Below, piece after piece: positions 19,447 to 54,180 of a DNA stretch of 64,000 bases (positions are counted from its first letter, which is position 1; each line of letters starts with the position of its first letter). The notes under the pieces are model-generated. The model was given only the letters and a program-made list of their open reading frames with translations. It was not told the origin of the DNA and ran no database searches. A program made the position numbers and the translations under genes. The DNA is from Candidatus Rokuibacteriota bacterium (GTDB lineage Bacteria > Methylomirabilota > Methylomirabilia > Rokubacteriales > CSP1-6), in contig QHSO01000015.1 of the NCBI GenBank assembly GCA_003220475.1, forward strand, positions 12,479 through 76,478, written 5' to 3'.

Positions 19447-19875
19447 TTACGCCGGCGTGGGCCGCTCGACGACGATCGTGCGTGGCTCGTCGCCGACGCC
19501 GGCGATCCGCACGCGCACCGCGCGGGCCGGCAGCAGCGGCTCGACCCGCTCCGCCCACTCGATGACCGTGATGCCGTCGCCGTCCATCATTTCCTCGATC
19601 CCGAGGTCCATCAGCTCGGCGAGGCTCGTCGTTCGATAGGCGTCGACGTGGTGCACGGGCACCCGACCGCGATACTCGTTGACCAGCACGAAGGTCGGGC
19701 TCGTGGCGGCGGTGCCGACGCCGAGGGCGCGCGCCAGCCCCTGCACGAAGACCGTCTTGCCGGCGCCGAGCTCACCGGTCAACGCGACGACGTCGCCGGA
19801 CTTCAGTGTGGCGCCCAGGCGCGCACCCGCGGCCTCCGTCTCCTCGGGCGAGGTCGTCGTGAGCTCAGCGCCCAT
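19447..19875 (-). CDS. tsaE: tRNA t6A biosynthesis ATPase TsaE
   Basis: 142 aa. The motifs are GELGAGKTVFVQGLARALG, TSPTFVLVNEY and HVDAYR. Confidence 0.9.
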   Translation of the reverse strand: MGAELTTTSPEETEAAGARLGATLKSGDVVALTGELGAGKTVFVQGLARALGVGTAATSPTFVLVNEYRGRVPVHHVDAYRTTSLAELMDLGIEEMMDGDGITVIEWAERVEPLLPARAVRVRIAGVGDEPRTIVVERPTPA

Positions 19876-21424
19876 CGGCGAGCCGGCGGAACGCCTCGCC
19901 CAGCGCGTCGATGATGTCGCCGGCGATGAGCGCCTCTTCGCCCACGCGCTCGGCGGCGATGTCCCCGGCGAGGCCGTGCAGATAGACGCCGGCCGGCGCC
20001 GCCTGCGCCACGTCGATGCCGCGCGCGAGCAGCGCGCCGAGGATCCCGGTCAGCACGTCGCCCGTTCCGCCGCTCGCCATGCCGGCGTTACCCGTCGGAT
20101 TGATCAGGACGCGACCGTCCGGGGCGGCGATCAGCGTTCGCGCGCCCTTGAGGACGAGATGCACGCCATGGGTCGTCGCGAATGCGCGGGCGGCGCCGAC
20201 GCGGTCCGCTTGAACGTCGGCGACGGCGCCGCCGAGCAGGCGCGCCATCTCGCCGGGATGCGGCGTGAGCACGCGCGCGGCGTGTGCGCCACGCAGCACG
20301 TCGAGGTGATCGGCCAGCGCGGTGAGCGCGTCGGCGTCGACCACCATCGGCCGCGGCAGCGTGGAGACGAGCACACGCGCGAGCGCGCGCGTCTCGTCGT
20401 CCAGGCCGAGGCCGGGACCGATCGCGAGGGCGGCACGCGCCTCGGCCAGCCCCACGATGGGCTCGCGCGCTTTCATCGCAAGGCTCCGCGCGGGCGTCTC
20501 CGGCAGCGGCTCGGTCATCGCCTCGAGCGACAGCGCGGCGACCGTCGGCTGGGCACTGGCGGCGGTGCCGACGGTCACGAGACCGACGCCGCTGCGCAGC
20601 GCGGCCCGCGCACAGAGCGCGGCCGCGCCCGTCTTGCCGACCGAGCCGGCGAGCACGAGCAGGTGCCCGTAGGTCCCCTTGTGGACGGCGCGCGGCCGCC
20701 GCGGGAAGAGCGGCGCCACGTCCGAGGCCTCGAGCAGAAACGTCTGCGCGTCGCGTGCGACCTCGGCCTCGGGCACACCGATCGGCACGACGACGACGCG
20801 GCCGGCGAGGTCGGCGCCGTCGCCGACGACGAGGCCAAGCTTCGGCGCGGCGAACGTCGGCGTGAGCCAGGCGCGCACGACGGGCCCTTCCGCCCGGCCG
20901 CCGTCGGCGGGCAGGCCCGACGGCACGTCGAGGGCGACCACGGGCCGTCCGCTGGCATTGATCGCGTCGATCAGCGCCGCGACCAGCGGTGTGGGTGCGC
21001 CGCGCACGCCGGTGCCGAGCAGCGCATCGACGATCACATCCGCGCGGCCGAGCGCCGCCGAGACCTTGGCGGCGTCGTCGACGACGCGCGCGGCAACACC
21101 GGTCCGACGCATTTCGGCGAACTTGACGGCGGCATCACCGTGCAGCCGGTCCGGCGGGACGACGAGCAGCACGTCGGGCCGCGCGCCCGCGCGCTTGAGA
21201 CGCCGCGCGACGACGAAGCCGTCGCCGCCGTTGCCGCCGCCGCCGCACGCGAGCGTCACTCTGAGATCGCGCGGCCGCAGGCCGCGCTCCGGCAGCGCGG
21301 CGAGCAGCGCGTCGGCCGCGCCACGGCCGGCGTTCTCCATGAGGGTGGGACCGGGGATGCCGAGCTCGGCGATCGCCCGCGCGTCCACGCGGCGCATCGC
21401 CTCCGCGGTGAGGACCGGTCGCAT
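19865..21424 (-). CDS. nnr: bifunctional NAD(P)H-hydrate epimerase/dehydratase
   Basis: 519 aa. The N-terminal YjeF_N domain reads LMENAG...GGGNGGDGFV. The C-terminal carbohydrate-kinase domain reads HKGTYGHLLVLAGS...GGTGDVLTG. Confidence 0.9.
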   Translation of the reverse strand: MRPVLTAEAMRRVDARAIAELGIPGPTLMENAGRGAADALLAALPERGLRPRDLRVTLACGGGGNGGDGFVVARRLKRAGARPDVLLVVPPDRLHGDAAVKFAEMRRTGVAARVVDDAAKVSAALGRADVIVDALLGTGVRGAPTPLVAALIDAINASGRPVVALDVPSGLPADGGRAEGPVVRAWLTPTFAAPKLGLVVGDGADLAGRVVVVPIGVPEAEVARDAQTFLLEASDVAPLFPRRPRAVHKGTYGHLLVLAGSVGKTGAAALCARAALRSGVGLVTVGTAASAQPTVAALSLEAMTEPLPETPARSLAMKAREPIVGLAEARAALAIGPGLGLDDETRALARVLVSTLPRPMVVDADALTALADHLDVLRGAHAARVLTPHPGEMARLLGGAVADVQADRVGAARAFATTHGVHLVLKGARTLIAAPDGRVLINPTGNAGMASGGTGDVLTGILGALLARGIDVAQAAPAGVYLHGLAGDIAAERVGEEALIAGDIIDALGEAFRRLADGR

Positions 21425-22200: not shown

Positions 22201-22570
22201 GCATCGCCTGCGCGAGCGCGTAATCGCCGTCGTGGGTCAGGGCCAGCAGCATGTGCCGGCCGCCACGCGCGAGCCCCAGCTCACGCGCGCGACCGTGCAT
22301 CACGAGCCGCGGCGCCTGACCGCGCTCGCGGCAGACCTCCAGGTCACGCCAGCGCACACCGAGGCTCAGTCCGGTGCCGAGCGCCTTCGTGGCCGCTTCC
22401 TTGGCGGCGAACCGAGCGGCGAAATGCGGCACGGGATCGCGCCGGGCGCGGCAGTAGGCGATCTCGCCCTCGGTGAAGACGCGGCGCAGGAAGCGCTCGT
22501 CCCAGCGCGCGATCACGTCGCGCATGCGGGGGATCTGCACGAGATCGATGCCGATGGCCCGGACGTTCAC
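22160..22570 (-). CDS. acpS: holo-ACP synthase
   Basis: 136 aa. The motifs are IGIDLV, FAARFAAKEAATKALG and LTHDGDYALA. Confidence 0.9.
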   Translation of the reverse strand: MNVRAIGIDLVQIPRMRDVIARWDERFLRRVFTEGEIAYCRARRDPVPHFAARFAAKEAATKALGTGLSLGVRWRDLEVCRERGQAPRLVMHGRARELGLARGGRHMLLALTHDGDYALAQAMLVDDDPHRAPATR

Positions 22571-23922
22571 GCGCCGATCTGACTGCGGATCACGCCGGCG
22601 AGCTCGTCGGCCATGGCCTGGATGCGCGCGGCGTCGGCCCCCTCGATCATGACGCGCGCCAGCGCCTCGGTGCCCGAGTAGCGGATGAGCACACGGCCGA
22701 TGCCGTTCATCTCCGACTCGAACACGCCGACGCGCGCGCCGAGGCCGTCGATGGACTCGATCGGCGGCTTGGAGCGCACGGGGACGTTGACGAGCACCTG
22801 GGGAAACTTCCGCATGCAGGTGGCGAGCGATGCCAGCGGCTCGCCGGCCTCACGCACTACGGACAGCAGCGCGAGGGCCGAGAGGATGCCGTCGCCGGTG
22901 GGCATGTAATCCGGGAACAGCAGGTGTCCCGACTGCTCGCCACCGAGGTTGGCGCCGCTCTTCAGCATCTCCTCGTGGACGTAGCGGTCACCCACCTGCG
23001 TTTTCACCACGCGAATGCCCGCCGCTTTGAGCGATTCGTCGAGGCCGAGGTTGGCCATCACCGTGGTGACCACGAGATTGCCCTTGAGCCGGCGCTGCTG
23101 CGCCATGTGACGCCCGGCGATGGCGAGTGCGTAGTCGCCGTCTCGGATCTCGCCGATGTGATCCACCGAGATGAGGCGATCACCGTCGCCGTCGAAGGCG
23201 AACCCGACGTCGGCGCGGACGGCGCGCAGGCGCTTCTGCAAGCCCTCCGGGTGCAACGCCCCGCAGCCGGCATTGATGTTGGTCCCGTCGGGCTGGACCG
23301 AGATCGCGACGACGCGCGCGCCGAGCCGGCGGAAGACGCTCGGCGCCACGCGGAACGTCGCGCCGTGGGCGCAGTCGATCGCCACCGTGAGGCCCGCGAG
23401 ATCGAGCGGAAAGCACCGCGTGAGGAAGTCGACGTAGTACTTCTCGGCGCGGTCATAGTGGATGAGCCGACCGATGTCGGCGCTCCGCGCGCGCGGCGCC
23501 GTGTCGGCGGCGGCCACGCGCGCCTCGATCTGCGCCTCCCACGCGTCGGGGAACTTCGTGCCCTCGGAGGAGAAGAGCTTGATGCCGTTGTCCTCGAACG
23601 GATTGTGGGAGGCCGAGAGCACGATGCCGCCTTGTGCGTCCAGGGCGCGCGTCATCAGCGCGATGCCCGGAGTCGGCAGCACGCCGACCGTGTAGCAGTC
23701 GGCCCCTGCCGACAGCAATCCGGCCACCATGGCCGCTTCGAGCAGCGGCCCCGAGCGCCGCGTGTCGCGGCCGATGACGAGCCGGATCCGCCCGTCGTGA
23801 TTCTGCTGGCCCAGCAGCGTGGCGACGAGCTCGCGACCGACGCGATACGCGAGATCCGGCGTGAGCGGCGGCTCGTTGGCGACGCCGCGGATGCCGTCGG
23901 TGCCGAACAGACGCTGGCTCAA
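22567..23922 (-). CDS. glmM: phosphoglucosamine mutase
   Basis: 451 aa. The motifs are LFGTDGIRG, SASHNPFEDNGIK (phosphoserine loop), DGDGDR and GGEQSGH. The TTG start forms a TTGA overlap with the cdaR stop. Confidence 0.95.
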   Translation of the reverse strand: MSQRLFGTDGIRGVANEPPLTPDLAYRVGRELVATLLGQQNHDGRIRLVIGRDTRRSGPLLEAAMVAGLLSAGADCYTVGVLPTPGIALMTRALDAQGGIVLSASHNPFEDNGIKLFSSEGTKFPDAWEAQIEARVAAADTAPRARSADIGRLIHYDRAEKYYVDFLTRCFPLDLAGLTVAIDCAHGATFRVAPSVFRRLGARVVAISVQPDGTNINAGCGALHPEGLQKRLRAVRADVGFAFDGDGDRLISVDHIGEIRDGDYALAIAGRHMAQQRRLKGNLVVTTVMANLGLDESLKAAGIRVVKTQVGDRYVHEEMLKSGANLGGEQSGHLLFPDYMPTGDGILSALALLSVVREAGEPLASLATCMRKFPQVLVNVPVRSKPPIESIDGLGARVGVFESEMNGIGRVLIRYSGTEALARVMIEGADAARIQAMADELAGVIRSQIGA

Positions 23923-24563
23923 CGGTCGCGTCGAATCTCGACGGTCACCTGCACCGTCCTCTGGGTTGTGGGATACACGGAGTCGGGCAGCAGCAACCCG
24001 ACCGTGCGCGTGACGCTCTGGCGGAGGTCCGTGACGTCCACGGGAACCGTCTCCACCGTTGCCCGCTCCTCGATTGTAGTGCGTGGACCCTTGACCTGAA
24101 TAGTTTCCGGTTCGACGACGATGCGACCGAGCCGGACGTCGGGCGGCGGGGAGCCGCGCAGCCGCGGCACGACCCGCAGGGCGCGCGTGGCGGCGGCGGC
24201 CACGCTGACGTGCACCCAGTTCGGCGCCACGCGGAGAACGTTCACGCCGACGGGCGTCTGCACGTCGTCGACCGAGAGCTGCAGCGTGTTGTCGCCCTCG
24301 CGCGCACGCGAGAGGTCAACCCGTACGCGGACTTCTCCGGGCGTGAGTCGGGCGGCCGCCCAGCGCGCGGCCTCGACCTGCAGATCGACCGTCTCGCGAG
24401 GCTGGCCCAGCAAAACCATCCCAGGCTCGAGACCGACGTACTCCACAGGGGCGGCGAAGCCGAACCGACTGCGATTGGCGTTCACCACGAAAAACCAGAC
24501 GACCACCGCCAGCACGACAGCGAGGAGCTTCAGCTGCCAGTTGCGCGTGAGAACCGCCAGCAT
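23919..24563 (-). CDS. cdaR: YbbR-domain protein (CdaR-like regulator of CdaA)
   Basis: 214 aa. An N-terminal transmembrane helix (KLLAVVLAVVVWFFV) is followed by YbbR-like beta-rich repeats. It sits between cdaA and glmM. Confidence 0.75.
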   Translation of the reverse strand: MLAVLTRNWQLKLLAVVLAVVVWFFVVNANRSRFGFAAPVEYVGLEPGMVLLGQPRETVDLQVEAARWAAARLTPGEVRVRVDLSRAREGDNTLQLSVDDVQTPVGVNVLRVAPNWVHVSVAAAATRALRVVPRLRGSPPPDVRLGRIVVEPETIQVKGPRTTIEERATVETVPVDVTDLRQSVTRTVGLLLPDSVYPTTQRTVQVTVEIRRDR

Positions 24564-25411
24564 CACCGCCCGGGCGACGTGGGCGGCTCGGCCTGCCGCG
24601 CGCGCAGACGCATGCCACGCAGCCATCCGGGCCAGAATGCGGGGACGCCCTCCGTGCGAGCGCCGAGCAGCGCCAGCAGCCGCCGCCGCAATGCGTCCGG
24701 TCCGGAGAGCGCCTCGATTCCGCCGTCGACGGCCAGCGAGAGGCGCCCCGTTTCCTCGGAGACGACGACGGCCACGGCGTCCGTCTCCTCGGTGACGCCG
24801 AGCGCCGCGCGATGGCGCGTGCCGAGCTGACGGGCGAGCTGGCTGTTGCGCGACAACGGCAGGAAGCACCCGGCGGCCACCACGCGATCGTCACGGATGA
24901 ACGCGGCGCCGTCGTGCAGCGGCGAGTACGGCAGGAACAGGCTCGTGAGCAGGTCGGCCGATACGAGCGCGTCCAGCGCGACGCCGAGCTCCGCATACTG
25001 CCGCAGTCCCGTCCCGCGCTCGATCACGATGAGCGCGCCGATGCGCCGCTCGGCGAGCGAGCCGGCCACCGAGGCGATCTCGTCGACCACGCGCAGCGTT
25101 TCCGCCCCGGCGCCACCGAACAGCGCATGCAGCGCGCCCGCGTGGCCGAGCGTGGTGAGGGCGCGCCGCAGCTCGGGCTGGAAGAGCACGACGAGCACGA
25201 CGACCCAGAACGACCACAGCGTGTCGAGGAGCCAGCCGAGGCTGTGCAGCTCGAGCTGGCGCGCGGCCACCGATGCCGCGACGAGGACGCCGACGCCGAC
25301 GAGCATCTGCATCGCGCGCGTCCCGCGAAACAGCGTGAAGATGCGATAGATCACGAGCGTGACGAGCAGGATGTCGACCGCGTCGCGCCAGCCGAACGCG
25401 CCCGCCGTCAT
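24563..25411 (-). CDS. cdaA: diadenylate cyclase CdaA (three transmembrane helices plus a DAC domain)
   Basis: 282 aa. The motifs are DILLVTLVIYRIF, GALIVIE, PLHDGAAFI and LGTRHRAALG (the DGA and RHR motifs). Confidence 0.9.
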   Translation of the reverse strand: MTAGAFGWRDAVDILLVTLVIYRIFTLFRGTRAMQMLVGVGVLVAASVAARQLELHSLGWLLDTLWSFWVVVLVVLFQPELRRALTTLGHAGALHALFGGAGAETLRVVDEIASVAGSLAERRIGALIVIERGTGLRQYAELGVALDALVSADLLTSLFLPYSPLHDGAAFIRDDRVVAAGCFLPLSRNSQLARQLGTRHRAALGVTEETDAVAVVVSEETGRLSLAVDGGIEALSGPDALRRRLLALLGARTEGVPAFWPGWLRGMRLRARQAEPPTSPGR

Positions 25412-26259
25412 CGCGCGGCGCTCCGCACGCGCTCGGCGACACGCACGGCGTCCACCGTCTCGGGGACGTCGTGGGTCCGGATGAGCGCGGCGCCGCCGAG
25501 CACGGCCGCCGTCGTCGCCGCGAGCGAGCCGGGCAGACGCGCGGCGGAGTCGTCCCGTCCGGTGATGGCGCCGACGAATGACTTGCGCGAGACGCCGACG
25601 CAGAGCGGACGGCCGAGGGCCGCGAGCGCCGGCAACCCTGCGAGCACGGCAACGTCCCACGCGTGCCAGGCGATGCCGGTTTCGCGAAAGAAGCCGATGC
25701 CCGGATCCAGGACGATCCGGTGCGTAGGGATACCGGCCGCGTGCGCGGTCGCCAGCGCGGTCGCGAGCAGTCGCGTGACCGTCGCCACCGGCTCGTCGAT
25801 GACACGGCCGGGCCCGGGCGCGGCCATCACGATGAGGCCGGCGTCGTGCGCGGCCGCCACGTGCGCGAGCGCGGGCTCGGCGAGCGTCGAGACGTCGTTC
25901 ACGACACGCGCGCCCGCCTCGAGCGCGGCGCGCGCGACCGCCGGACGGCACGTATCGACCGAGATCGGCGCAGGGAGCTTCGCGGCGAGCGCGCTCACCG
26001 CGCGCACGAGCCGCTCGGTCTCCTCGGCTTCGCTGATCGCGGTCTCGAGATAGGGCGCGCTCGACCGGGCGCCGACATCGATGAGCGCGGCGCCCTCCTC
26101 CACCATCCCGAGCGCGGCCGTCACCACGGCGTCGATGCCGCGATAGACGGAGCCGGCGTGAAAGGATTCGGGACTGACGTTGATGACGCCCATGACCGCG
26201 ATCGGCGATCCGTCACCGAGCGCGACACCGGCGAGATCGGCCCGGGACCCGCGCGACAT
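25408..26259 (-). CDS. folP: dihydropteroate synthase
   Basis: 283 aa. The motifs are VMGVINVSPESF, GAALIDVGA, ISVDT, VNDVS, LDPGIGF and GVSRKSF. Confidence 0.92.
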   Translation of the reverse strand: MSRGSRADLAGVALGDGSPIAVMGVINVSPESFHAGSVYRGIDAVVTAALGMVEEGAALIDVGARSSAPYLETAISEAEETERLVRAVSALAAKLPAPISVDTCRPAVARAALEAGARVVNDVSTLAEPALAHVAAAHDAGLIVMAAPGPGRVIDEPVATVTRLLATALATAHAAGIPTHRIVLDPGIGFFRETGIAWHAWDVAVLAGLPALAALGRPLCVGVSRKSFVGAITGRDDSAARLPGSLAATTAAVLGGAALIRTHDVPETVDAVRVAERVRSAAR

Positions 26260-26264
26260 GTCTC

Positions 26265-26459
26265 ACGATACCACTTGAACATGGGGGCCCCGACATGGCC
26301 CCCATACCCCCAGCGCTCGTCACGCCCCGGCGACGCCGGGGCGCTCCTCGATACCACGTGAACATGGGAGCCCCGACATGGCCCCCATACCCCCAGCGCT
26401 CGTCACGCCCCGGCGACGCCGGGGCGCTCCTCGATACCACGTGAACATGGGAGCCCCGA
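26265..26459. repeat. 83-bp tandem direct repeat, about 2.35 copies, each unit carrying two GC-rich hairpins
   Basis: Units start at 26265, 26348 and 26431. Copies 1 and 2 differ at 2 of 83 positions. The 29-nt partial copy 3 is identical to copy 2. The hairpins are GCCCCGG-cgacg-CCGGGGC and GGGGGCC-ccgacat-GGCCCCC. Confidence 0.9.
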
Positions 26460-28205
26460 CTCGCGCTCGAGCAGGGCGCGCGCGAGCGCGTGCAGCTTCT
26501 CGATGTTTTCCTCGAGGATCTGCCGCGCGCGCGTCGCGCATTCGAGCACGATGCGCTTGATCTCGCTGTCGATGGCGAGGGCGGTGTCCTCGCTGTAATC
26601 CTTCGCGCGCGCGACCTCGCGACCGAGGAAGATGTGCTCCTCGTTCTTGCCGAAGGTGAGCGGGCCCAGCTTCTCGGACATGCCCCACTCGCACACCATC
26701 TTGCGCGCCATCTCGGTGGCCTTCTCGAGGTCGTCGCCGGCACCCGTCGTCTGCTGCTGCAGCACGATCTCCTCGGCGCTGCGGCCACCCATGAGGATGA
26801 TGATGCGGTTGATGAGGTACTCGCGCGAATAGTTGTACTTGTCGTCCATCGGGAGCTGCATCGTGAGACCGAGCGCGCGGCCGCGCGGAATAATCGTCAC
26901 CTTGTGCAGCGGATCGGCGCCCGGCAGGAAGTCGGCCACCAGCGCGTGTCCCGCCTCGTGGTACGCGATCGTGCGCTTTTCGGCGTCGGAGATGATCATC
27001 GAGCGTCGCTCGACGCCCATCAGCACCTTGTCCTTGGCGTTCTCGAAGTCCAGCATCTCCACGAGCTTCTTGTTCTGCCGCGCGGCGAGCAGCGCCGCCT
27101 CGTTCACGAGGTTGGCGAGATCGGCGCCGGAGAAGCCGGGCGTGCCGCGCGCGAGCACCTTGAGCTCCACGTTCGGCGCCAGCGGGATACGCCGCGCGTG
27201 CACGCGCAGGATCTCCTCGCGTCCCTTCACGTCCGGCCGCGGCACGACGACCTGGCGATCGAAGCGCCCGGGGCGCAGCAGCGCCGGGTCGAGCACGTCG
27301 GGCCGGTTGGTGGCCGCGATGAGGATGACGCCTTCGTTGGTCTCGAAGCCGTCCATCTCGACGAGCAGCTGGTTCAGCGTCTGCTCGCGCTCGTCGTGAC
27401 CGCCGCCCAGTCCGGCGCCGCGGTGGCGACCGACGGCATCGATCTCGTCCATGAAAATGATGCAGGGCGCGTGCTTCTTGCCTTGCTCGAACAGGTCGCG
27501 CACGCGCGAGGCGCCCACGCCGACGAACATCTCGACGAAATCCGACCCCGAAATCGAGAAGAACGGCACGTTCGCTTCGCCGGCGATGGCCTTGGCGAGC
27601 AGGGTTTTGCCGGTGCCGGGCGGGCCGACGAGCAGCACGCCCTTCGGGATCTTGCCGCCGAGCTTCTGGAACTTCTGCGGATCCTTGAGGAAGTCGATGA
27701 TCTCGCGGAGCTCTTCCTTGGCCTCGTCCACGCCCGCGACGTCCTGAAATGTCACCTTGTTCTGCTTCTCGGAGATAAGCCGTGCTCTCGCTTTTCCGAA
27801 ACTGAGCGCCTTGGCGCCGCCGCCCTGCATCTGGCGCATGAAGAAGATCCAGACGCCGATGAAGAGGAGCATCGGCACCCACTGTAAAAAGATCGCGTAC
27901 CAGGGGTTGCTGTCGGGCGGCTTGACGGCGATCCGGACGCCCTTGTCGCGGAGCATCTTGACGAGGTCCGGGTAGTCGACGATGTAGGTGCGCTGGGTCG
28001 GCGAGCCGTCACGCAGGTTGTACGTCACCAGGTTGCCGCGGATGACGACCGATTCCACGCGCCCTTGCTCGACCGCCTTCAGGAATTCCGAGAAGTTGGG
28101 CGACTCCTGCCCACCGGGTTGGGTGTTGGAGAACACGGTGAAGAGCAGGATGACGATGAGACCGATGACCATCCAGAGAGCGAGGTTTTTGTAAACCTGG
28201 TTCAT
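26403..28205 (-). CDS. ftsH: ATP-dependent zinc metalloprotease FtsH
   Basis: The N-terminus is [14 protein letters not shown]. Walker A is GPPGTGKT, Walker B is IIFMDEIDA, the SRH region is present, and the zinc site is HEAGHAL. I chose the ATG at 28205. The last 17 codons and the stop are encoded by the tandem repeat. Confidence 0.93.
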
Positions 28206-28247
28206 CGTCGCCAGTGTAGCACAGCGACGAAGGGCTGACACGGCGCG

Positions 28248-28787
28248 TCAGGCCGGCACGACCTCATCGAGCGCGGCGACATAGGGCAGGTTGCGATAAA
28301 GACCGCCGAAGTCGAACCCGTAACCGACGACGAACACGTTCGGGATCGTGAAGCCGACGTACTCGATGCGCACGTCGACTTGCCGCCGCTCGATCTTGTC
28401 CACGAGCGCGCAGACACGGATGCTGCGCGGATGGCGCGCCTCGAGGTTGCGTCGCAAGTACGAGATGGTGAGACCCGTGTCGACGATGTCCTCGACGACG
28501 ACGACGTGTCGGTTCTCGACCGGCATCGCGAGGTCCGACACGATCCGCACCTGCCCCGAGGAGCGATTGCCGGCGCCGTACGAGGCGAGCCCGATGAAGT
28601 CGGTCGTGATGTCGCCGGGGATGGCGCGCACGAGGTCGGCCATGAACAGGAACGCGCCCTGAAGCACGCCGACCAGCACCGGTGTTTCGCCCGCGTAGTC
28701 GTGACCGATCTGTCGGCCCAGCTCGGCGATGCGCGTTCGCAGCTCGGGCTCGCTGATGAGCACGCGGCCGGGACGCGCGGTCGTCAC
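28248..28787 (-). CDS. hpt: hypoxanthine phosphoribosyltransferase
   Basis: The motifs are VLVGVLQGAFLFMADL and VVVVEDIVDTGLT (PRPP loop). I chose the GTG at 28787, one nt after the upstream TGA, which gives 179 aa. Confidence 0.88.
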   Translation of the reverse strand: MTTARPGRVLISEPELRTRIAELGRQIGHDYAGETPVLVGVLQGAFLFMADLVRAIPGDITTDFIGLASYGAGNRSSGQVRIVSDLAMPVENRHVVVVEDIVDTGLTISYLRRNLEARHPRSIRVCALVDKIERRQVDVRIEYVGFTIPNVFVVGYGFDFGGLYRNLPYVAALDEVVPA

Positions 28788-31113: not shown

Positions 31114-32103
31114 TTAGATGATACCCAGCGGCGCAGGGCCGCCACGAAGAAAAAACGCAAGGGAATCGAGGACAAGCAGCGCGCCGAGGGTCAGCGCCGC
31201 CGCCCACGCGAAGACCCGGACCGCGCGCGAGACGTCAGCCTCCGTGGCCGCGCGGCCATCGCCGAGGCGATACGCGCCGCGCTTGGCCAGCGTGAGGCCG
31301 AGCGCGCCCGCCATGGCGGCCATCGTCAGTCCTGCGTTGGGGCTCGCCGTGCGCGCGCCGTCGCGCCACAGCACCCGCACGGCCGCGCGCGCGTTCTCAC
31401 CAGCGATGGCGGCGCCGACGACGAGCGCCGCCGCGGCGAGCCGCGCGGGGACGAAGTTCAGCGCATCGTCGAGACGCGCGGCGACCTTGCCGAACCACTC
31501 GAGCGCGCCGTCGCGATAACCGATCATCGCGTCGGCGGTGTTCACCGCGCGATACGCGGCCGCTCCCGCGAGCCCGAAAGCGAGATAGAAGCAGAGCGGC
31601 GCCACGAACGCGTCGGTGAGATTCTCGGCGACCGACTCCACGACGGCGGATGCGACCTCGTCGCGCGCGAGGGTCGCAGTGGGGCGGCTGACGAGATGCT
31701 GCGCCAACGCCACGCGCGCGGCGTCGAGGTCTCCACCGGCGAGCGCCGCGGCCACGCCACGCGCGGCGGCGACGAGTCCGCGGAGCGAGAGCAGCAGTGA
31801 GAGGACGGCTCCCTCGATGAGCGGAGCGGCCATCCCCAGACGCGCGGCGAGCGCCGTAATCACCTCGCCGCCCAGCGCGGCCGCGCCTGCCACCGCCAGC
31901 GTCAGCACCGCGCCGCCGACGAGCAGCCGAACGCGCCCGCCGCGGCAGAGCCCGCGGCGGCCCACGCCGAGCGCGCCGCCCATCCACGCCACCGGATGCA
32001 GCCGGTTCGGCGGATCCCCGAACAGCAGATCGAGCGCAACCGCGACGGCGAGCGCCGCCGCGGCGTCAGCGACCGAACCGAACGCTGAAGCCGGCACGCA
32101 CAC
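31114..32103 (-). CDS. cbiB: adenosylcobinamide-phosphate synthase CbiB/CobD
   Basis: The motifs are LDLLFGDPPNRLHPV, VESVAENLTD, NTADAMIGY and ASPNAG. The start is uncertain (GTG 32103 or GTG 32097) and overlaps the upstream gene end. Confidence 0.85.
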   Translation of the reverse strand: MCVPASAFGSVADAAAALAVAVALDLLFGDPPNRLHPVAWMGGALGVGRRGLCRGGRVRLLVGGAVLTLAVAGAAALGGEVITALAARLGMAAPLIEGAVLSLLLSLRGLVAAARGVAAALAGGDLDAARVALAQHLVSRPTATLARDEVASAVVESVAENLTDAFVAPLCFYLAFGLAGAAAYRAVNTADAMIGYRDGALEWFGKVAARLDDALNFVPARLAAAALVVGAAIAGENARAAVRVLWRDGARTASPNAGLTMAAMAGALGLTLAKRGAYRLGDGRAATEADVSRAVRVFAWAAALTLGALLVLDSLAFFLRGGPAPLGII

Positions 32104-32773
32104 CGAAATCCGGAGCCGCCCCGGCCAGGCTCGTCGACACGGCGGTGTCGAGCGCGAAGTCCCGCGTGAGCCGCCAGATGACGCCCGTCTGCACGCTGAG
32201 CCCGTCGCGCCCCTCGCGCGTGTCGCGCGAGGCGAAGGCCAGCTCGACGAAGCCGCTGAGCCCACCGAGCAGACGCCGGGACAGCGAGGCGGACGCCCGC
32301 GCCTGGACGAGGTGACCACTCGACCGGCTCTGACCGACGAGCACGGCGCCGGCGTTGACGTCGAGCGCGAAGTCCGACGGCAGACCGAAGGAGGCGAGGA
32401 GCAAGAGGCCGGCGTCGGTCTCGCCCGAGCCGATCGGCTCCTGCGCGGTAGGCAGTTTGACGAACGGATTCAGCGCGAGCGCCGGCCACCATGCGCCCTC
32501 GGGCGTCGCGAGGAAGCGATACTTCAGCCCGAGGGTGAAGTCGCCCACGTCGGTCTCTTCGCGGCTGTTGTCGATGCGGACGACCGGCTCGGCATCGACG
32601 CGAAGCTCGATGCCGTCGGCGATGCCAATGCGCAGCGTCTCCGGACGATCGGGATCGATGACGTCGTCGTTGGCTCCGCATGCGGGCGCGGCGGCGAGCG
32701 CGACGAGGGCGACGGCGGCGAGCGCGCGCCTCAGGACATCGTCCCCGTGTAGCGGGCCTTCAGCGCCTCCCAC
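32066..32773 (-). CDS. putative outer-membrane beta-barrel protein (MetA/phenol-degradation-type transporter-like)
   Basis: A signal-like segment LRRALAAVALVALAAAPACGA is followed by alternating beta-strand patterns and a C-terminal aromatic residue (SVRFGR). DPDRPE resembles the family's N-terminal motif. The start is unclear (GTG 32773, or CTG 32734 overlapping the upstream TGA). Confidence 0.5.
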   Translation of the reverse strand: MGGAEGPLHGDDVLRRALAAVALVALAAAPACGANDDVIDPDRPETLRIGIADGIELRVDAEPVVRIDNSREETDVGDFTLGLKYRFLATPEGAWWPALALNPFVKLPTAQEPIGSGETDAGLLLLASFGLPSDFALDVNAGAVLVGQSRSSGHLVQARASASLSRRLLGGLSGFVELAFASRDTREGRDGLSVQTGVIWRLTRDFALDTAVSTSLAGAAPDFGVRAGFSVRFGR

Positions 32774-52235: not shown

Positions 52236-52490
52236 ATGAACCGACTGACGGTCGATGAGCGACGCCGCGCGAACGAGCTCAGACGGCTGAGCACGACGCT
52301 GGGCGCACCGCGAGCCCTCGCGGTCGAGGAGCTGGGCGAGAGAACGGGCGCGGGCTGGGGACGCAATGCGCGCCTCGCGACGCTCATCACGGTGATCCTG
52401 GGCGGAGTGCTGGCGCTCCTCCAGTTGGCGCAAACGCTCTCGCTGCACGGCCCCGGCTCGCTCCTCGACTGGCTGCTGCCTCGGTTATAG
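52236..52490 (+). CDS. small hypothetical protein with one C-terminal transmembrane helix
   Basis: 84 aa. GGAGGAG is the RBS. The transmembrane segment is LATLITVILGGVLALLQLA. Confidence 0.45.
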   Translation: MNRLTVDERRRANELRRLSTTLGAPRALAVEELGERTGAGWGRNARLATLITVILGGVLALLQLAQTLSLHGPGSLLDWLLPRL

Positions 52491-52534
52491 AGACGCGCCA
52501 CGGGTTTCCCGGGGCGCGGCGAACGTTGGGGGGT

Positions 52535-52561
52535 TTGGGGGGCTATTTCGGGGCCCCCCAA
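52535..52561. terminator. GC-rich hairpin between convergent genes (possible bidirectional terminator)
   Basis: TTGGGGGGC (52535-52543) pairs with GCCCCCCAA (52553-52561) across a 9-nt loop. Only a short TTT follows on the plus strand. Confidence 0.4.
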
Positions 52562-52563
52562 TT

Positions 52564-54180
52564 TCATATAGCCAGCGCGTAGCCGTCGCGGCGCGGGTCG
52601 GCGCCTGCCATGAGGGCGCCTGACGCCGGGTCGCGCATCACTCCCTGCCCTCCGCCGACGATCCACGACCAGTCCGCGATCGCATTCACCTCGTGGCCCC
52701 GCTGCGCCAGGCCGTCACGGATTTCTGCCCCGATGCGTGCCTCGGCGTCAATGAGCCGATCGCGGTAGGCTCGCACGCGCGGCGCCTCGATCGCCTCCTG
52801 GACGTTCATCCCGAACTCGAGCACGTTGAGAAGCATCTGCGCGGTCGTTTGCAGAATCCCGTACGAGCCGGGCGTGCCGATCGAGAGGAAAAAGTTCCCA
52901 TCGTCGAAGACCTGGGTCGGCGACATCATCGTGCCGGCCTTGCGTCCGGCGCGCACGACGTTCGGCGACGCAGGATCGCGATCCATCCACTTGAGGATGT
53001 TGTTGAGCACGAGCCCCGTGCCGGGAATGGCGAAGCCCGAGCCGAACGGAACGCCGAGCGTTTGCGTCACCGACACGACCATGCCGCTGGCGTCGGCGCA
53101 CGCGAAGTGCGTCGTGTGCTCGTCGGCGAACTTCGCGGGATGCCCCTCGGCGATCTGGTTCGGTAAGCGCTCGGTATTGTGACGCTCGCCCTCGCTGACG
53201 CCGGCGCGCTTGGGATCGATCCGCGCGCGCTGGCTCTCCGCGTACTTCTTCGAGAGCAGCCCGGTGATCGGCGCCTCGCCGGCGTACGCGTAGGCGAGGC
53301 GATCGGCCGACGCGAGCTTCACCGCCTCGATCAGGTGATGGAGGTAGTCGACGGAGTTGTGGCCCCACGCCTGCAGCTCGTAGCCCTCGAGGATGTTGAG
53401 CGTCTCGAGCATCTGGAAGGCGGAGAACGGCGGCGGCATCGAGTAGATCCGTCGACCGCGATACGTGATGGTCACCGGTTCTCGCCACTCGGGCTCGAAG
53501 GCGGCGAGATCGTCTTCGCCGAGCCACCCGCCGGCCTCGCGTACGGCGCGAGCGATCGTTTTTGCGATCGGCCCTCGATAGAACACCTCGGCGCCGCCCT
53601 CGGCGATCTGGCGCAACGTCGCTGCGAGGTCCTTGTAGGTCACGATGGACCCCGGGCGCAGGGCGCCGTTGCCGAGATAGAGCCGCCCGGCCTCGCGCGA
53701 GCGTGCGAGCGTGGCGCGCGCGGCCTCGAAGAACTCGACGTTCTTGAAGGTCAGCGGGACGCCGCGCTCGGCGTGCTCGATGGCCGGCGCCAGCACGCGC
53801 AGGCGGTCCATCGTGCCGAAGCGGTTGAGCGCCGCCAGCCAGCCGCCGAGGTTGCCCGGCGTCGCGCACGACTTCGGCCCGCCCGCCAGCTCGTCCTCCG
53901 TGCAGCGCGTCGCGTCCGCGGCGCGCGGCGCACGCCCGATGAAGTCCAGGACGTGGCGCTCGCCGCCCCGTGAGATCAGCATCAGCCCGATGCCCGCCGC
54001 ACCGGACATGAACGGCTCGACGACGTTGAGTGTGGCACCGACGGCGACGGCGGCATCGACGGCGTTACCGCCCGCCAGCAGGATCTCGATGCCGGCCATC
54101 GAGGCCAGCGGGTGAGCGGACGTCACGACGCCGCGGCGGCCCATGACGGTCGGACGATACGCGAGACGATGAGGCGGCAT
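52564..54180 (-). CDS. ggt: gamma-glutamyltransferase family protein, no signal peptide
   Basis: 538 aa. The autoprocessing region is TTHFACAD, and GGGQG is present. I chose the ATG at 54180, preceded by AGGAGG. A perfect TATAAT (minus strand, 54220-54225) lies upstream. Confidence 0.9.
   Translation of the reverse strand: MPPHRLAYRPTVMGRRGVVTSAHPLASMAGIEILLAGGNAVDAAVAVGATLNVVEPFMSGAAGIGLMLISRGGERHVLDFIGRAPRAADATRCTEDELAGGPKSCATPGNLGGWLAALNRFGTMDRLRVLAPAIEHAERGVPLTFKNVEFFEAARATLARSREAGRLYLGNGALRPGSIVTYKDLAATLRQIAEGGAEVFYRGPIAKTIARAVREAGGWLGEDDLAAFEPEWREPVTITYRGRRIYSMPPPFSAFQMLETLNILEGYELQAWGHNSVDYLHHLIEAVKLASADRLAYAYAGEAPITGLLSKKYAESQRARIDPKRAGVSEGERHNTERLPNQIAEGHPAKFADEHTTHFACADASGMVVSVTQTLGVPFGSGFAIPGTGLVLNNILKWMDRDPASPNVVRAGRKAGTMMSPTQVFDDGNFFLSIGTPGSYGILQTTAQMLLNVLEFGMNVQEAIEAPRVRAYRDRLIDAEARIGAEIRDGLAQRGHEVNAIADWSWIVGGGQGVMRDPASGALMAGADPRRDGYALAI

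Follow-up and report, generated by a model that had tools for sequence, protein, structure and literature searches.

A tandem array at the ftsH-folP junction of a Rokubacteria genome is a probable local amplification of a dispersed two-hairpin repeat

The ftsH-folP junction of this Candidatus Rokuibacteriota genome carries about 2.35 head-to-tail units of 83 nt (positions 26266-26460 of the window, the 64,000-nt stretch of DNA analysed here). This array is very probably a locally amplified copy of a genome-wide, non-coding, two-hairpin repeat of Rokubacteria, with a history of slippage and deletion. Tandem Repeats Finder returns the same interval (period 83, 2.3 copies, 98% matches, score 376), in agreement with a preliminary description made from the sequence alone, and a repeat search of the window recovers the 2 differences in 83 positions counted there between the full copies (26266-26348 and 26349-26431). 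The 83-mer has two matches in the window and none in 100 dinucleotide-preserving shuffles. Unit 1 is composed, in order, of 15 nt of linker plus AT-rich left end (CGATACCACTTGAAC), hairpin 1, a C-rich spacer, hairpin 2 and CTCCT. Since the element strand is the plus strand and the genes lie on the minus strand, the units are antisense to ftsH and folP transcription. Both GC hairpins initially noted in each unit are present: hairpin 1 has a 9-bp stem (ATGGGGGCC/GGCCCCCAT) and a 7-nt loop, with its unit 2 counterpart at 26364-26388, and hairpin 2 a 10-bp stem (CGCCCCGGCG/CGCCGGGGCG), with its counterpart at 26406-26426. However, the CACGTG palindrome attributed to every unit is confined to units 2 and 3, and unit 1 reads CACTTG. 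A single unit folded as DNA reaches -24.1 kcal/mol (z = -3.8), and in silico RNA folding, proposed earlier as a check, gives -132 kcal/mol (z = -4.25) for the 231-nt junction RNA. Comparison with relatives and conspecific contigs shows that the short direct repeat TATCG brackets the array locus. Coordinates are collected in Table 1.

Table 1. Features of the ftsH-folP junction and a further repeat copy in the window.
Feature	Position	Strand	Basis
folP (Pterin_bind domain); first gene of the folP-cdaA-ybbR-glmM string	25408..26259	-	
Native folP leader TGGTATCGTGAGAC	26260..26273	-	Congeners G003, G004, G007, also G005; conspecific contigs
Repeat unit 1, 83 nt; adjoins folP	26266..26348	+	Tandem Repeats Finder, repeat search
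Hairpin 1, unit 1 (ATGGGGGCC-CCGACAT-GGCCCCCAT)	26281..26305	.	Inverted-repeat search, folding, family covariation
Hairpin 2, unit 1 (CGCCCCGGCG-A-CGCCGGGGCG)	26323..26343	.	Inverted-repeat search, folding, family covariation
Repeat unit 2, 83 nt; 2 differences from unit 1; contains the ftsH stop codon	26349..26431	+	
Partial repeat unit 3, 29 nt; ends within the hairpin 1 loop, fused straight to ftsH coding sequence	26432..26460	+	
ftsH (FtsH_ext, AAA, AAA_lid_3 and Peptidase_M41 domains)	26403..28241	-	ORF list, Pfam
Repeat-encoded replacement tail of FtsH, 17 residues and TGA	26403..26456	-	ORF translation, relatives
Putative deletion junction, GTCG microhomology	26457..26460	-	Comparison with G005, L133, L135, L136
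Further full family copy; occupies the spacer between two convergent genes	52481..52571	-	93 bits, E = 2.8e-19

The 83-nt unit is a member of a dispersed family, and the REP/MITE-like dispersal suspected at the outset is borne out. The suggested BLAST search with the 83-mer gives 64 matches in the genome, and iterated nhmmer gives 149 matches at 121 loci for an element of about 75-90 nt. Unit 1 matches covariance model R1 at 26270-26358 (76.5 bits, E = 1.4e-15). Tandem arrays represent 19 of the 121 loci, with periods mostly of 79-102 nt, and all are head-to-tail on a single strand. The left end of the element is AT-rich (T-N-R-A..TGGGGGG) and the right end reads CTCCTCGRT. Both stems are supported by covariation among 69 copies: 10 pairs have both sides changed, and 100 such cells are counted where shuffles give 31 (none of 500 shuffles reached that value, and slid controls are far lower). 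Model R1 detects the repeat in 11 of 11 congeners and in most genera of the taxonomic family, at about 100 bits in other genera, and almost nowhere in the other families of the order. The nhmmer, covariation and model R1 results together exclude that the further loci are unrelated sequences. Rfam covariance models gave chance-level matches only across 26000-26700 (E at least 0.5, far below gathering scores). Literature searches found no paper linking Rokubacteria with REP elements, and Rokubacteria are not mentioned among the results listed for a broader search of repeat terms; this abundant repeat of soil Rokubacteria is apparently new to the literature. A test for target-site duplication is weakly positive (longest shared flank word 4.59 against 4.32 +/- 0.11 in shuffled pairings), and direct repeats of 8-9 nt flank a few family loci. 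In a comparison aimed at RNA-level selection, stem mismatches of the G:T and A:C types stand at 20:3 in antisense and 10:5 in sense copies, counts that are too few and too sensitive to the alignment to be used.

The family has a marked preference for the ends of genes. Copies lie in 57 co-directional, 35 convergent and 1 divergent spacers, the background being 75%, 12% and 12%, which amounts to an approximately 11-fold depletion from divergent spacers. The median distance from the neighbouring stop codon to the hairpin 1 end is 1 nt, and at 68 of 92 loci this end lies closer to the stop codon than the other end (p = 5e-6). Some 12 genes terminate within a family copy, the ftsH tail being one such case; other copies lie in frame inside an RND pump gene and a beta-propeller gene, and most copies have 5-6 of their 6 reading frames open. 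The near-exclusive placement downstream of stop codons, the conservation of the sequence and of both stems across many genera, the compensatory changes that preserve these stems and the high stability of the junction RNA would all suit a cis-acting module, RNA or DNA, that is kept by selection and is not simply tolerated selfish DNA, with the array tuning the ftsH:folP expression ratio. Candidate roles are a putative mRNA 3'-end stabiliser, a read-through attenuator or a protein-binding site. However, the copies occur in both orientations relative to transcription (31 antisense and 26 sense), their presence at the same spacer varies among congeners, the copy number appears to vary among conspecific populations, and the locus has neither a U-tract nor a terminator prediction, so that we regard selection for such a module as possible but rather doubtful. 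An intrinsic (Rho-independent) terminator was rejected, no terminator-like site being found on either strand of 25900-26800.

Comparison of the ftsH-folP spacer with relatives, another of the checks initially proposed, shows that G005 and G008 have a single copy at this position, oriented alike, that G003, G010, G001 and G011 have none, and that G004, G006 and G007 carry independent copies elsewhere in the spacer. Three metagenome contigs, L136, L135 and L133, align to the window over 0.5-6 kb on each side of the array, with 99.2-99.6% identity. At the same site they contain 1, 2 and 4 units, respectively, as read from short-read assemblies, and each has an intact ftsH. Tandem arrays are often collapsed in such assemblies. 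The three alleles share a common frame, TAG-TTGCGTCATATCG-(units)-TGAGACATG. The units of one array differ from each other at 0-2 nt, those of most pairs of alleles at 3-6 nt (0-3 nt for L133 against L135, which are nearly identical). The occurrence of 1, 2 and 4 units in near-identical contigs therefore makes the ftsH-folP locus a copy-number-variable array, whose length, on the evidence of these contigs, appears to differ between populations of the same species.

The same comparisons revise the view of folP, whose initiation signals had been taken to be repeat-derived. This is refuted: the 14 nt preceding the folP ATG (TGGTATCGTGAGAC) are identical in the congeners G003, G004 and G007, which are free of the repeat at that position, indicating that the leader is native. 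Its TGGTATCG portion is duplicated together with the element, and the last 9 or so nt of every 83-nt unit correspond to this duplicated native flank. The array ends 6 nt (TGAGAC) before the ATG and not 5 nt as first stated. The GAGGAG sequence reported at the unit junctions is indeed present there. However, CTCCTC, its complement on the element strand, ends about 111 of 112 family copies; GAGGAG is thus the intrinsic conserved end of the element and is not made by the unit junctions. The best FolP matches in a search of a named genome collection are 41-44% identical. A MIRU-like translational coupling, in which ribosomes ending at the ftsH stop would reach the folP start by way of a short frame through the repeat, might draw on the 22-codon frame found in each unit, on the TGA located 3 nt before the folP ATG and in frame with folP, and on the open frames of most family copies. 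It is nevertheless highly improbable: no ATG, GTG or TTG frame longer than 3 codons ends at this TGA, the frame opening in the last unit overlaps folP by about 47 nt in another frame, the 83-nt period is not divisible by 3, the TGAGACATG context is native and also found without the repeat, and the ftsH stop lies more than 140 nt from the folP start.

On the other side of the array, ftsH (probable start at the ATG at 28205) runs into the repeat as first described: the minus-strand ORF (28241/28205..26403) ends in a full unit, with its TGA stop just past hairpin 2 of that unit. The reported replacement of the native C-terminal tail also stands, since SLDSEEIARILRARPFSEAPAPA, followed by the stop codon, is kept in 15 of 15 relatives and in 3 of 3 conspecific contigs. 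In the window FtsH these 22 aa are replaced, a loss seen only in this assembly, and the Peptidase_M41 match stops at profile position 181 of 191, compared with 191 of 191 in a relative. Alignments to PDB entries locate the loss as well. The parents of the junction are recognizable (breakpoints marked by a slash): native ftsH reads ...GAGTCG/CTGGAC and the repeat unit ...CATGTCG/GGGCTC, whereas the window reads GAGTCG/GGGCTCCC where the intact allele goes on into CTGGACTCC.... The comparison shows that the window allele is the derived state, and it resembles an array of 3 or more units from which about 140 nt have been lost, between GTCG in ftsH and GTCG in the hairpin loop. Neither the exact truncated FtsH, searched with two alternative starts, nor the junction 30-mer, searched in metagenome contigs, matched any other record in collections that may omit the records of this genome. 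A literature search on FtsH C-terminal truncations found nothing usable.

The odds that the ftsH truncation is real in the cells are roughly even, and the loss of the normal FtsH end in this assembly may be an assembly error. There is an equal chance that it is an artefact or a rare variant, the organism having an intact ftsH and at least three units. Polymerase template switching across the GC-rich hairpins during library preparation, or assembly itself, would then have produced the junction, retained as the bridge of a hard-to-sequence region. The intact tail of the 3 conspecific contigs and 15 relatives points this way; since the tail is invariant across the genus, its loss would not be expected to have become fixed in a population. 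Further deletions in this size range, with microhomologies of 2-4 nt, distinguish these assemblies of 99.5% identity (117 nt are missing from the window at about 32639, and 82 nt from L133 at 20766-20845, with a frameshift), which suggests a technical cause or rare variants. The contigs of G008, G005, G021 and G023 end at or near the ftsH-folP junction, so the region is hard to assemble, and the breakpoint in the window lies inside a hairpin loop. However, a de Bruijn assembler is unable to make such a junction from an overlap of just 4 nt and reads bearing it must therefore exist. The natural instability of the locus (1, 2 or 4 units) makes a genuine deletion plausible, and the loss of the tail could be buffered by a second FtsH, a complete paralogue at C79:8725-10623 (57% identical). 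The stronger reading, in which the truncation is real and a stop-codon-associated, RAYT-independent repeat conserved throughout the family forms hypervariable arrays in essential operons of natural populations, with hairpin-loop deletions rewriting C-termini such as that of FtsH, seems unlikely.

A local amplification with subsequent deletion would proceed in three steps, with slippage and microhomology as the presumed mechanism. One element, flanked by TATCG on both sides, would first have entered downstream of the ftsH stop and ahead of the folP leader, in antisense orientation to transcription. The head-to-tail array would have arisen by slippage or unequal exchange, involving the TATCG repeats at first and whole 83-nt units later. 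An array of at least three units would then have lost about 140 nt between the GTCG in ftsH codons 593-594 and the GTCG in the hairpin 1 loop of the ftsH-proximal unit. This loss would have taken the last 22 ftsH codons, the stop codon, the 13-nt spacer and 58 nt of the ftsH-proximal unit, and by fusing ftsH to the repeat it would account for the 17 repeat-encoded codons followed by TGA just after hairpin 2. Each unit would add two very stable stem-loops to the ftsH-folP mRNA, which might form a barrier to 3'-to-5' decay or a partial block to read-through, by analogy with REP/BIME elements. The unit copy number would in this way tune the level of ftsH expression against that of folP-cdaA-ybbR-glmM.

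Rokubacteria are uncultured bacteria that abound in soil. Present in about 150 copies per genome, at gene ends and inside operons, the repeat may affect gene calling, assembly breaks and operon expression throughout the lineage. As array length appears to change within a species, the arrays could be used as strain markers in the manner of MIRU-VNTR, and this locus illustrates how an essential gene next to such an array can be damaged or remodelled. In draft genomes of this lineage, deletions of 80-140 nt should be checked against reads before any biological reading. If the truncation is true, the arrays would serve as markers for strain typing and would at the same time generate variation in protein tails and operon expression.

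Among known repeats, the REP, BIME and REPIN elements of Proteobacteria are likewise high-copy, GC-rich hairpins located after coding regions (PMC3733652, PMC3116915, PMC2817692), and roles in mRNA stabilisation and termination have been proposed for them. The Rokubacteria copies share their palindromic nature and their extragenic placement downstream of genes, in unidirectional or convergent spacers with occasional intragenic copies. In a classical REP/REPIN, a 20-40 bp palindrome has on one side an unpaired tag, GTAG or CGTC (PMC3733652). In the Rokubacteria family, 26 of 101 copies, the array unit included, have CGTC ahead of hairpin 2. However, GTAG is found in 7 of 101, which is chance level, the stems are without the A/T first positions and CCA tail of the CGTC families (PMC3733652), and the unit is a fixed pair of unrelated hairpins of about 75-90 nt conserved across a whole taxonomic family and not in one species. 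Mobilisation by a RAYT (Y1) transposase has very little probability and was rejected: no Y1_Tnp (PF01797) gene was found in this draft genome, and such genes, present in 14 of 61 genomes of the family (drafts built from metagenomes), are not in the repeat-rich ones and do not track repeat abundance. The alternating orientation with conserved linkers expected of BIMEs, or the inverted doublets of REPINs, is replaced by a head-to-tail arrangement in 19 of 19 arrays. MITE terminal inverted repeats were also rejected, the ends being non-complementary and the two internal hairpins the only inverted repeats. Like Rickettsia palindromic elements (RPE) and other small repeats found inside genes, some copies lie in frame within genes or supply gene ends, but the Rokubacteria copies are mostly intergenic and the ftsH case would correspond to a deletion fusing a gene to an existing array, not to an in-frame insertion. 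The MIRU of Mycobacterium (Supply et al. 1997) are described in PMC3184786 as GC-rich units of 40-100 bp with internal inverted repeats, found at tens of intergenic operon sites, often in tandem, with short direct-repeat flanks and co-transcribed with their neighbours. The Rokubacteria repeat differs from them in its two distinct covarying hairpins, its occurrence in both orientations relative to transcription, its abundance of about 150 copies, also between convergent genes, and in that no frame joins the ftsH stop to the folP start at this locus. No sequence relation is expected across phyla, and the likeness to MIRU-VNTR lies in architecture: tandem units within the 40-100 bp range, internal inverted repeats, dispersal over intergenic operon sites, direct-repeat flanks and a copy number that varies between strains (in the conspecific short-read assemblies, 1, 2 and 4 units).

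The junction between ftsH and folP carries a tandem array of 83-nt units, as the preliminary description had proposed. A repeat search of the window identified two full copies, with 2 mismatches over 83 positions, and a third copy of 29 nt; shuffled sequence contains no match to the 83-mer. The TGA of ftsH lies within the repeat, also as described, and more precisely in the first full unit. The array ends 6 nt, rather than 5 nt, before the folP ATG, and the CACGTG motif attributed to every unit is present in two of the three copies and missing from the remaining one. The expected dispersion of the unit was verified: the 83-mer has 64 matches in the genome that contains the window (4.8 Mb, 329 contigs, 69% G+C), and an iterated nhmmer search, run to convergence, yields 149 hits at 121 loci. 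The array is real as sequence and is mostly ordinary biology for this Rokubacteria lineage. Downstream of folP lie cdaA, ybbR and glmM; this gene string combines the ftsH-folP-glmM order of proteobacteria with the cdaA-cdaR-glmM module of Firmicutes.

Coordinates of the array, its neighbourhood and selected family copies (window positions; G000, the window's own genome, with contig numbers)
Feature	Position	Strand	Remarks
hpt, ftsH, folP, cdaA, ybbR (cdaR-like), glmM	22567-28787	minus	identities confirmed by Pfam
ftsH	28241/28205..26403	minus	FtsH_ext, AAA, AAA_lid_3, Peptidase_M41 domains
folP	26259..25408	minus	Pterin_bind domain
Array	26266-26460		period 83, 2.3 copies, 98% matches (Tandem Repeats Finder)
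Outer-membrane-barrel-like gene, btuB operon	32066-32773	minus	117-nt difference
117 nt absent from window	32636-32639		39 codons, in frame, CGT microhomology
82 nt absent from L133 (1618-1619)	20766-20845		frameshift
Gene with the 82-nt difference	19865-21424	minus	intact in window
Full copy in convergent spacer	52481-52571	minus	93 bits
Copy in RND-type pump	G000:C299:3718-3790		1125 aa
Copy in beta-propeller protein	G000:C68:19632-19704		antisense
Single copy	G000:C17:16318		direct repeats
Single copy	G000:C306:1143		direct repeats
FtsH paralogue	G000:C79:8725-10623		633 aa, 57% identical

The repeat core opens with an AT-rich left end (about 5-10 nt), followed by hairpin 1, (N)TGGGGGGCC-CCGAAAT-GGCCCCCCA(N). 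The spacer ACCCCCCAACGCTCG separates this from hairpin 2, GGAGCGCCCCGGC-GAA-GCCGTGGCGCTCC, in which a C·T mismatch is conserved, and the core closes with a near-invariant right end, CTCCTCGRT. Both stems are maintained by compensatory changes (69 copies), ten pairs being altered on both sides. Cells changed on both sides number 100 against 31 in shuffles, a value that none of 500 shuffles attained, and values are far lower when the partners are slid by 1-3 columns. The mid-stem mismatch of hairpin 2 (columns 64/76 of A1, the alignment of family copies) prevails in the family: 42 of 69 copies are unpaired there and 19 have C-G. Conserved mismatches of this kind are typical of hairpins that an enzyme recognises as DNA.

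The covariance model of the family, R1, detects the repeat in every one of the 11 congeners; within the taxonomic family most genera have it, and it is found almost nowhere in other families of the order; its counts per genome are lower bounds, the top values being at least about 71. No Y1 (RAYT) transposase was found in the window's own genome, and one is present in just 14 of the taxonomic family's 61 genomes, the repeat-rich genomes not being among them. The repeat has no match in Rfam. No paper in the literature searched connects Rokubacteria with REP elements, and Rokubacteria are unmentioned among the matches listed for the broader literature on repeats.

Placement of the copies was assessed with our own codon-usage gene caller, whose gene starts are approximate. 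Spacers with copies are co-directional (57), convergent (35) or divergent (1), against a genome background of 75%, 12% and 12%; co-directional spacers contain 31 antisense and 26 sense copies relative to transcription. The hairpin 1 end abuts the neighbouring reading frame, its median distance being 1 nt to a stop and 7 nt to a start, and is the nearer end at 68 of 92 loci (p = 5e-6); the hairpin 2 end is looser (medians 16 and 63 nt). One full copy in the window occupies an entire convergent spacer, leaving 0 nt to either neighbouring gene. Single copies on contigs C17 and C306 are flanked by direct repeats of 8-9 nt (CGCTCATC, TCATCGGTT) that include the start codon of the neighbouring gene, which fits a target duplication preserving the gene start. 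About a dozen well-scored genes terminate inside a copy, and two genes contain in-frame internal copies: one adds ...VGGPDMAPHTPQRSGHPGEPGEPL... to a loop of an RND-type pump, the other contributes ...GRPGFAGAPRALGGMGGHFGAPH... to a beta-propeller protein. Head-to-tail arrays occur at 19 loci (2-5 units each, periods mostly 79-102 nt); the ftsH-folP array is thus nothing unusual within the family.

A single copy matching the window's in position and orientation is present in congeners G005 and G008; G003, G010, G001 and G011 have none in this spacer. G006 carries an independent antisense copy elsewhere in it, and G004 and G007 carry sense copies immediately after the ftsH stop. These differing positions indicate that the spacer is a repeated landing site. 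In G007 (contig L111) the repeat fragments are accompanied by an extra membrane-protein-like ORF of about 270 aa between ftsH and folP, which the window does not have. The 14 nt preceding the folP ATG (TGGTATCGTGAGAC) are identical in G003, G004 and G007, all devoid of the repeat at that point. The folP leader is therefore native, not repeat-derived as previously proposed, and the unit-terminal TGGTATCG is duplicated flank.

Searching metagenome assemblies with an ftsH 32-mer yielded three contigs, L133, L135 and L136. Their identity to the window, measured over the 0.5-6 kb of alignment flanking the array on each side, is 99.2-99.6%, which places them in the same species. All read ...LLERESLDSEEIARILRARPFSEAPAPA to the stop, then TAG, then TTGCGTCATATCG; four, two and one 83-nt units follow in the respective assembled contigs, then TGAGACATG of folP. 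Within an array the units are 0-2 nt apart; between most alleles the difference is 3-6 nt (0-3 nt between L133 and L135). The single-copy allele has TATCG on both sides. From these assemblies we read ftsH-folP as a copy-number-variable locus, whose array may have been amplified by slippage or unequal exchange. Such variation among conspecific populations is new here, as is the caution that follows over the ftsH truncation.

The window allele is derived: it corresponds to an array of at least three units minus about 140 nt (66 nt coding, the 3-nt stop, 13 nt of spacer and 58 nt of unit). GTCG is found at both breakpoints, one of them in the hairpin 1 loop, suggesting deletion via microhomology. 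That this deletion is a real, dominant allele has, in our estimate, an even chance or slightly less. An assembler could not create such a junction from a 4-nt overlap alone, so some reads must carry it, and the locus is demonstrably unstable. However, all other copies of this ftsH gene are intact, contig ends fall at or close to the junction in four relatives, and near-identical assemblies are set apart by further deletions of comparable size, with microhomology of 2-4 nt. Relative to both L135 and L136, 117 nt are missing from the window, and L133 lacks 82 nt present in the window. These recurrent deletions of 80-140 nt between assemblies of the species could be biological or technical in origin.

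As assembled, FtsH is native up to the junction and continues with 17 repeat-encoded residues. The replacement of its tail is borne out: the 22-aa tail is kept in 15 of 15 relatives (genus, family and order), identical within the genus, and absent from the window allele. The Peptidase_M41 match stops at 181/191 versus 191/191 in a relative. By alignment to solved FtsH structures, the counterparts of the missing tail are LLEKETIEGDELRRILS of 7tdo_A (613-residue chain) and ETIDAPQIDDLMARR of 7vhp_A (644-residue chain). The tail is hence the protease domain's conserved last helix region, which is probably functionally important in this FtsH. The genome encodes a second, complete FtsH paralogue with its C-terminal ETLEGEALRRLL tail intact.

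The junction RNA (231 nt) folds at -132 kcal/mol (z = -4.25), and one unit folded as DNA at -24 kcal/mol. Neither a U-tract terminator nor a sigma-70 promoter was predicted at the locus. The array would add stable intercistronic stem-loops to the ftsH-folP mRNA. These may shield the ftsH message that precedes them or limit read-through into folP-cdaA-ybbR-glmM, the effect varying with copy number. Such an RNA-level effect would, by analogy to REP/BIME elements, be the most likely action of the array.

The earlier suggestion of a REP/MITE-like element holds for the dispersed family and its REP/BIME-like behaviour, but not for class membership. The repeat falls outside REP/REPIN for want of a RAYT, and probably on its tags as well; it falls outside the MITEs for want of terminal inverted repeats. 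The alternating orientation of BIMEs is missing, which excludes the repeat from that class despite the likeness in behaviour. MIRUs have a linking frame, whereas at ftsH-folP the TGA preceding folP closes no initiated frame, and a period of 83 nt changes the reading frame between successive units; the repeat is not a MIRU, although the locus behaves like a MIRU-VNTR. The repeat is one of the small structured intergenic repeats, a familiar class, and the ftsH-folP locus is closest in behaviour to MIRU-VNTR loci (PMC3184786) and REP/BIME elements (PMC3733652).
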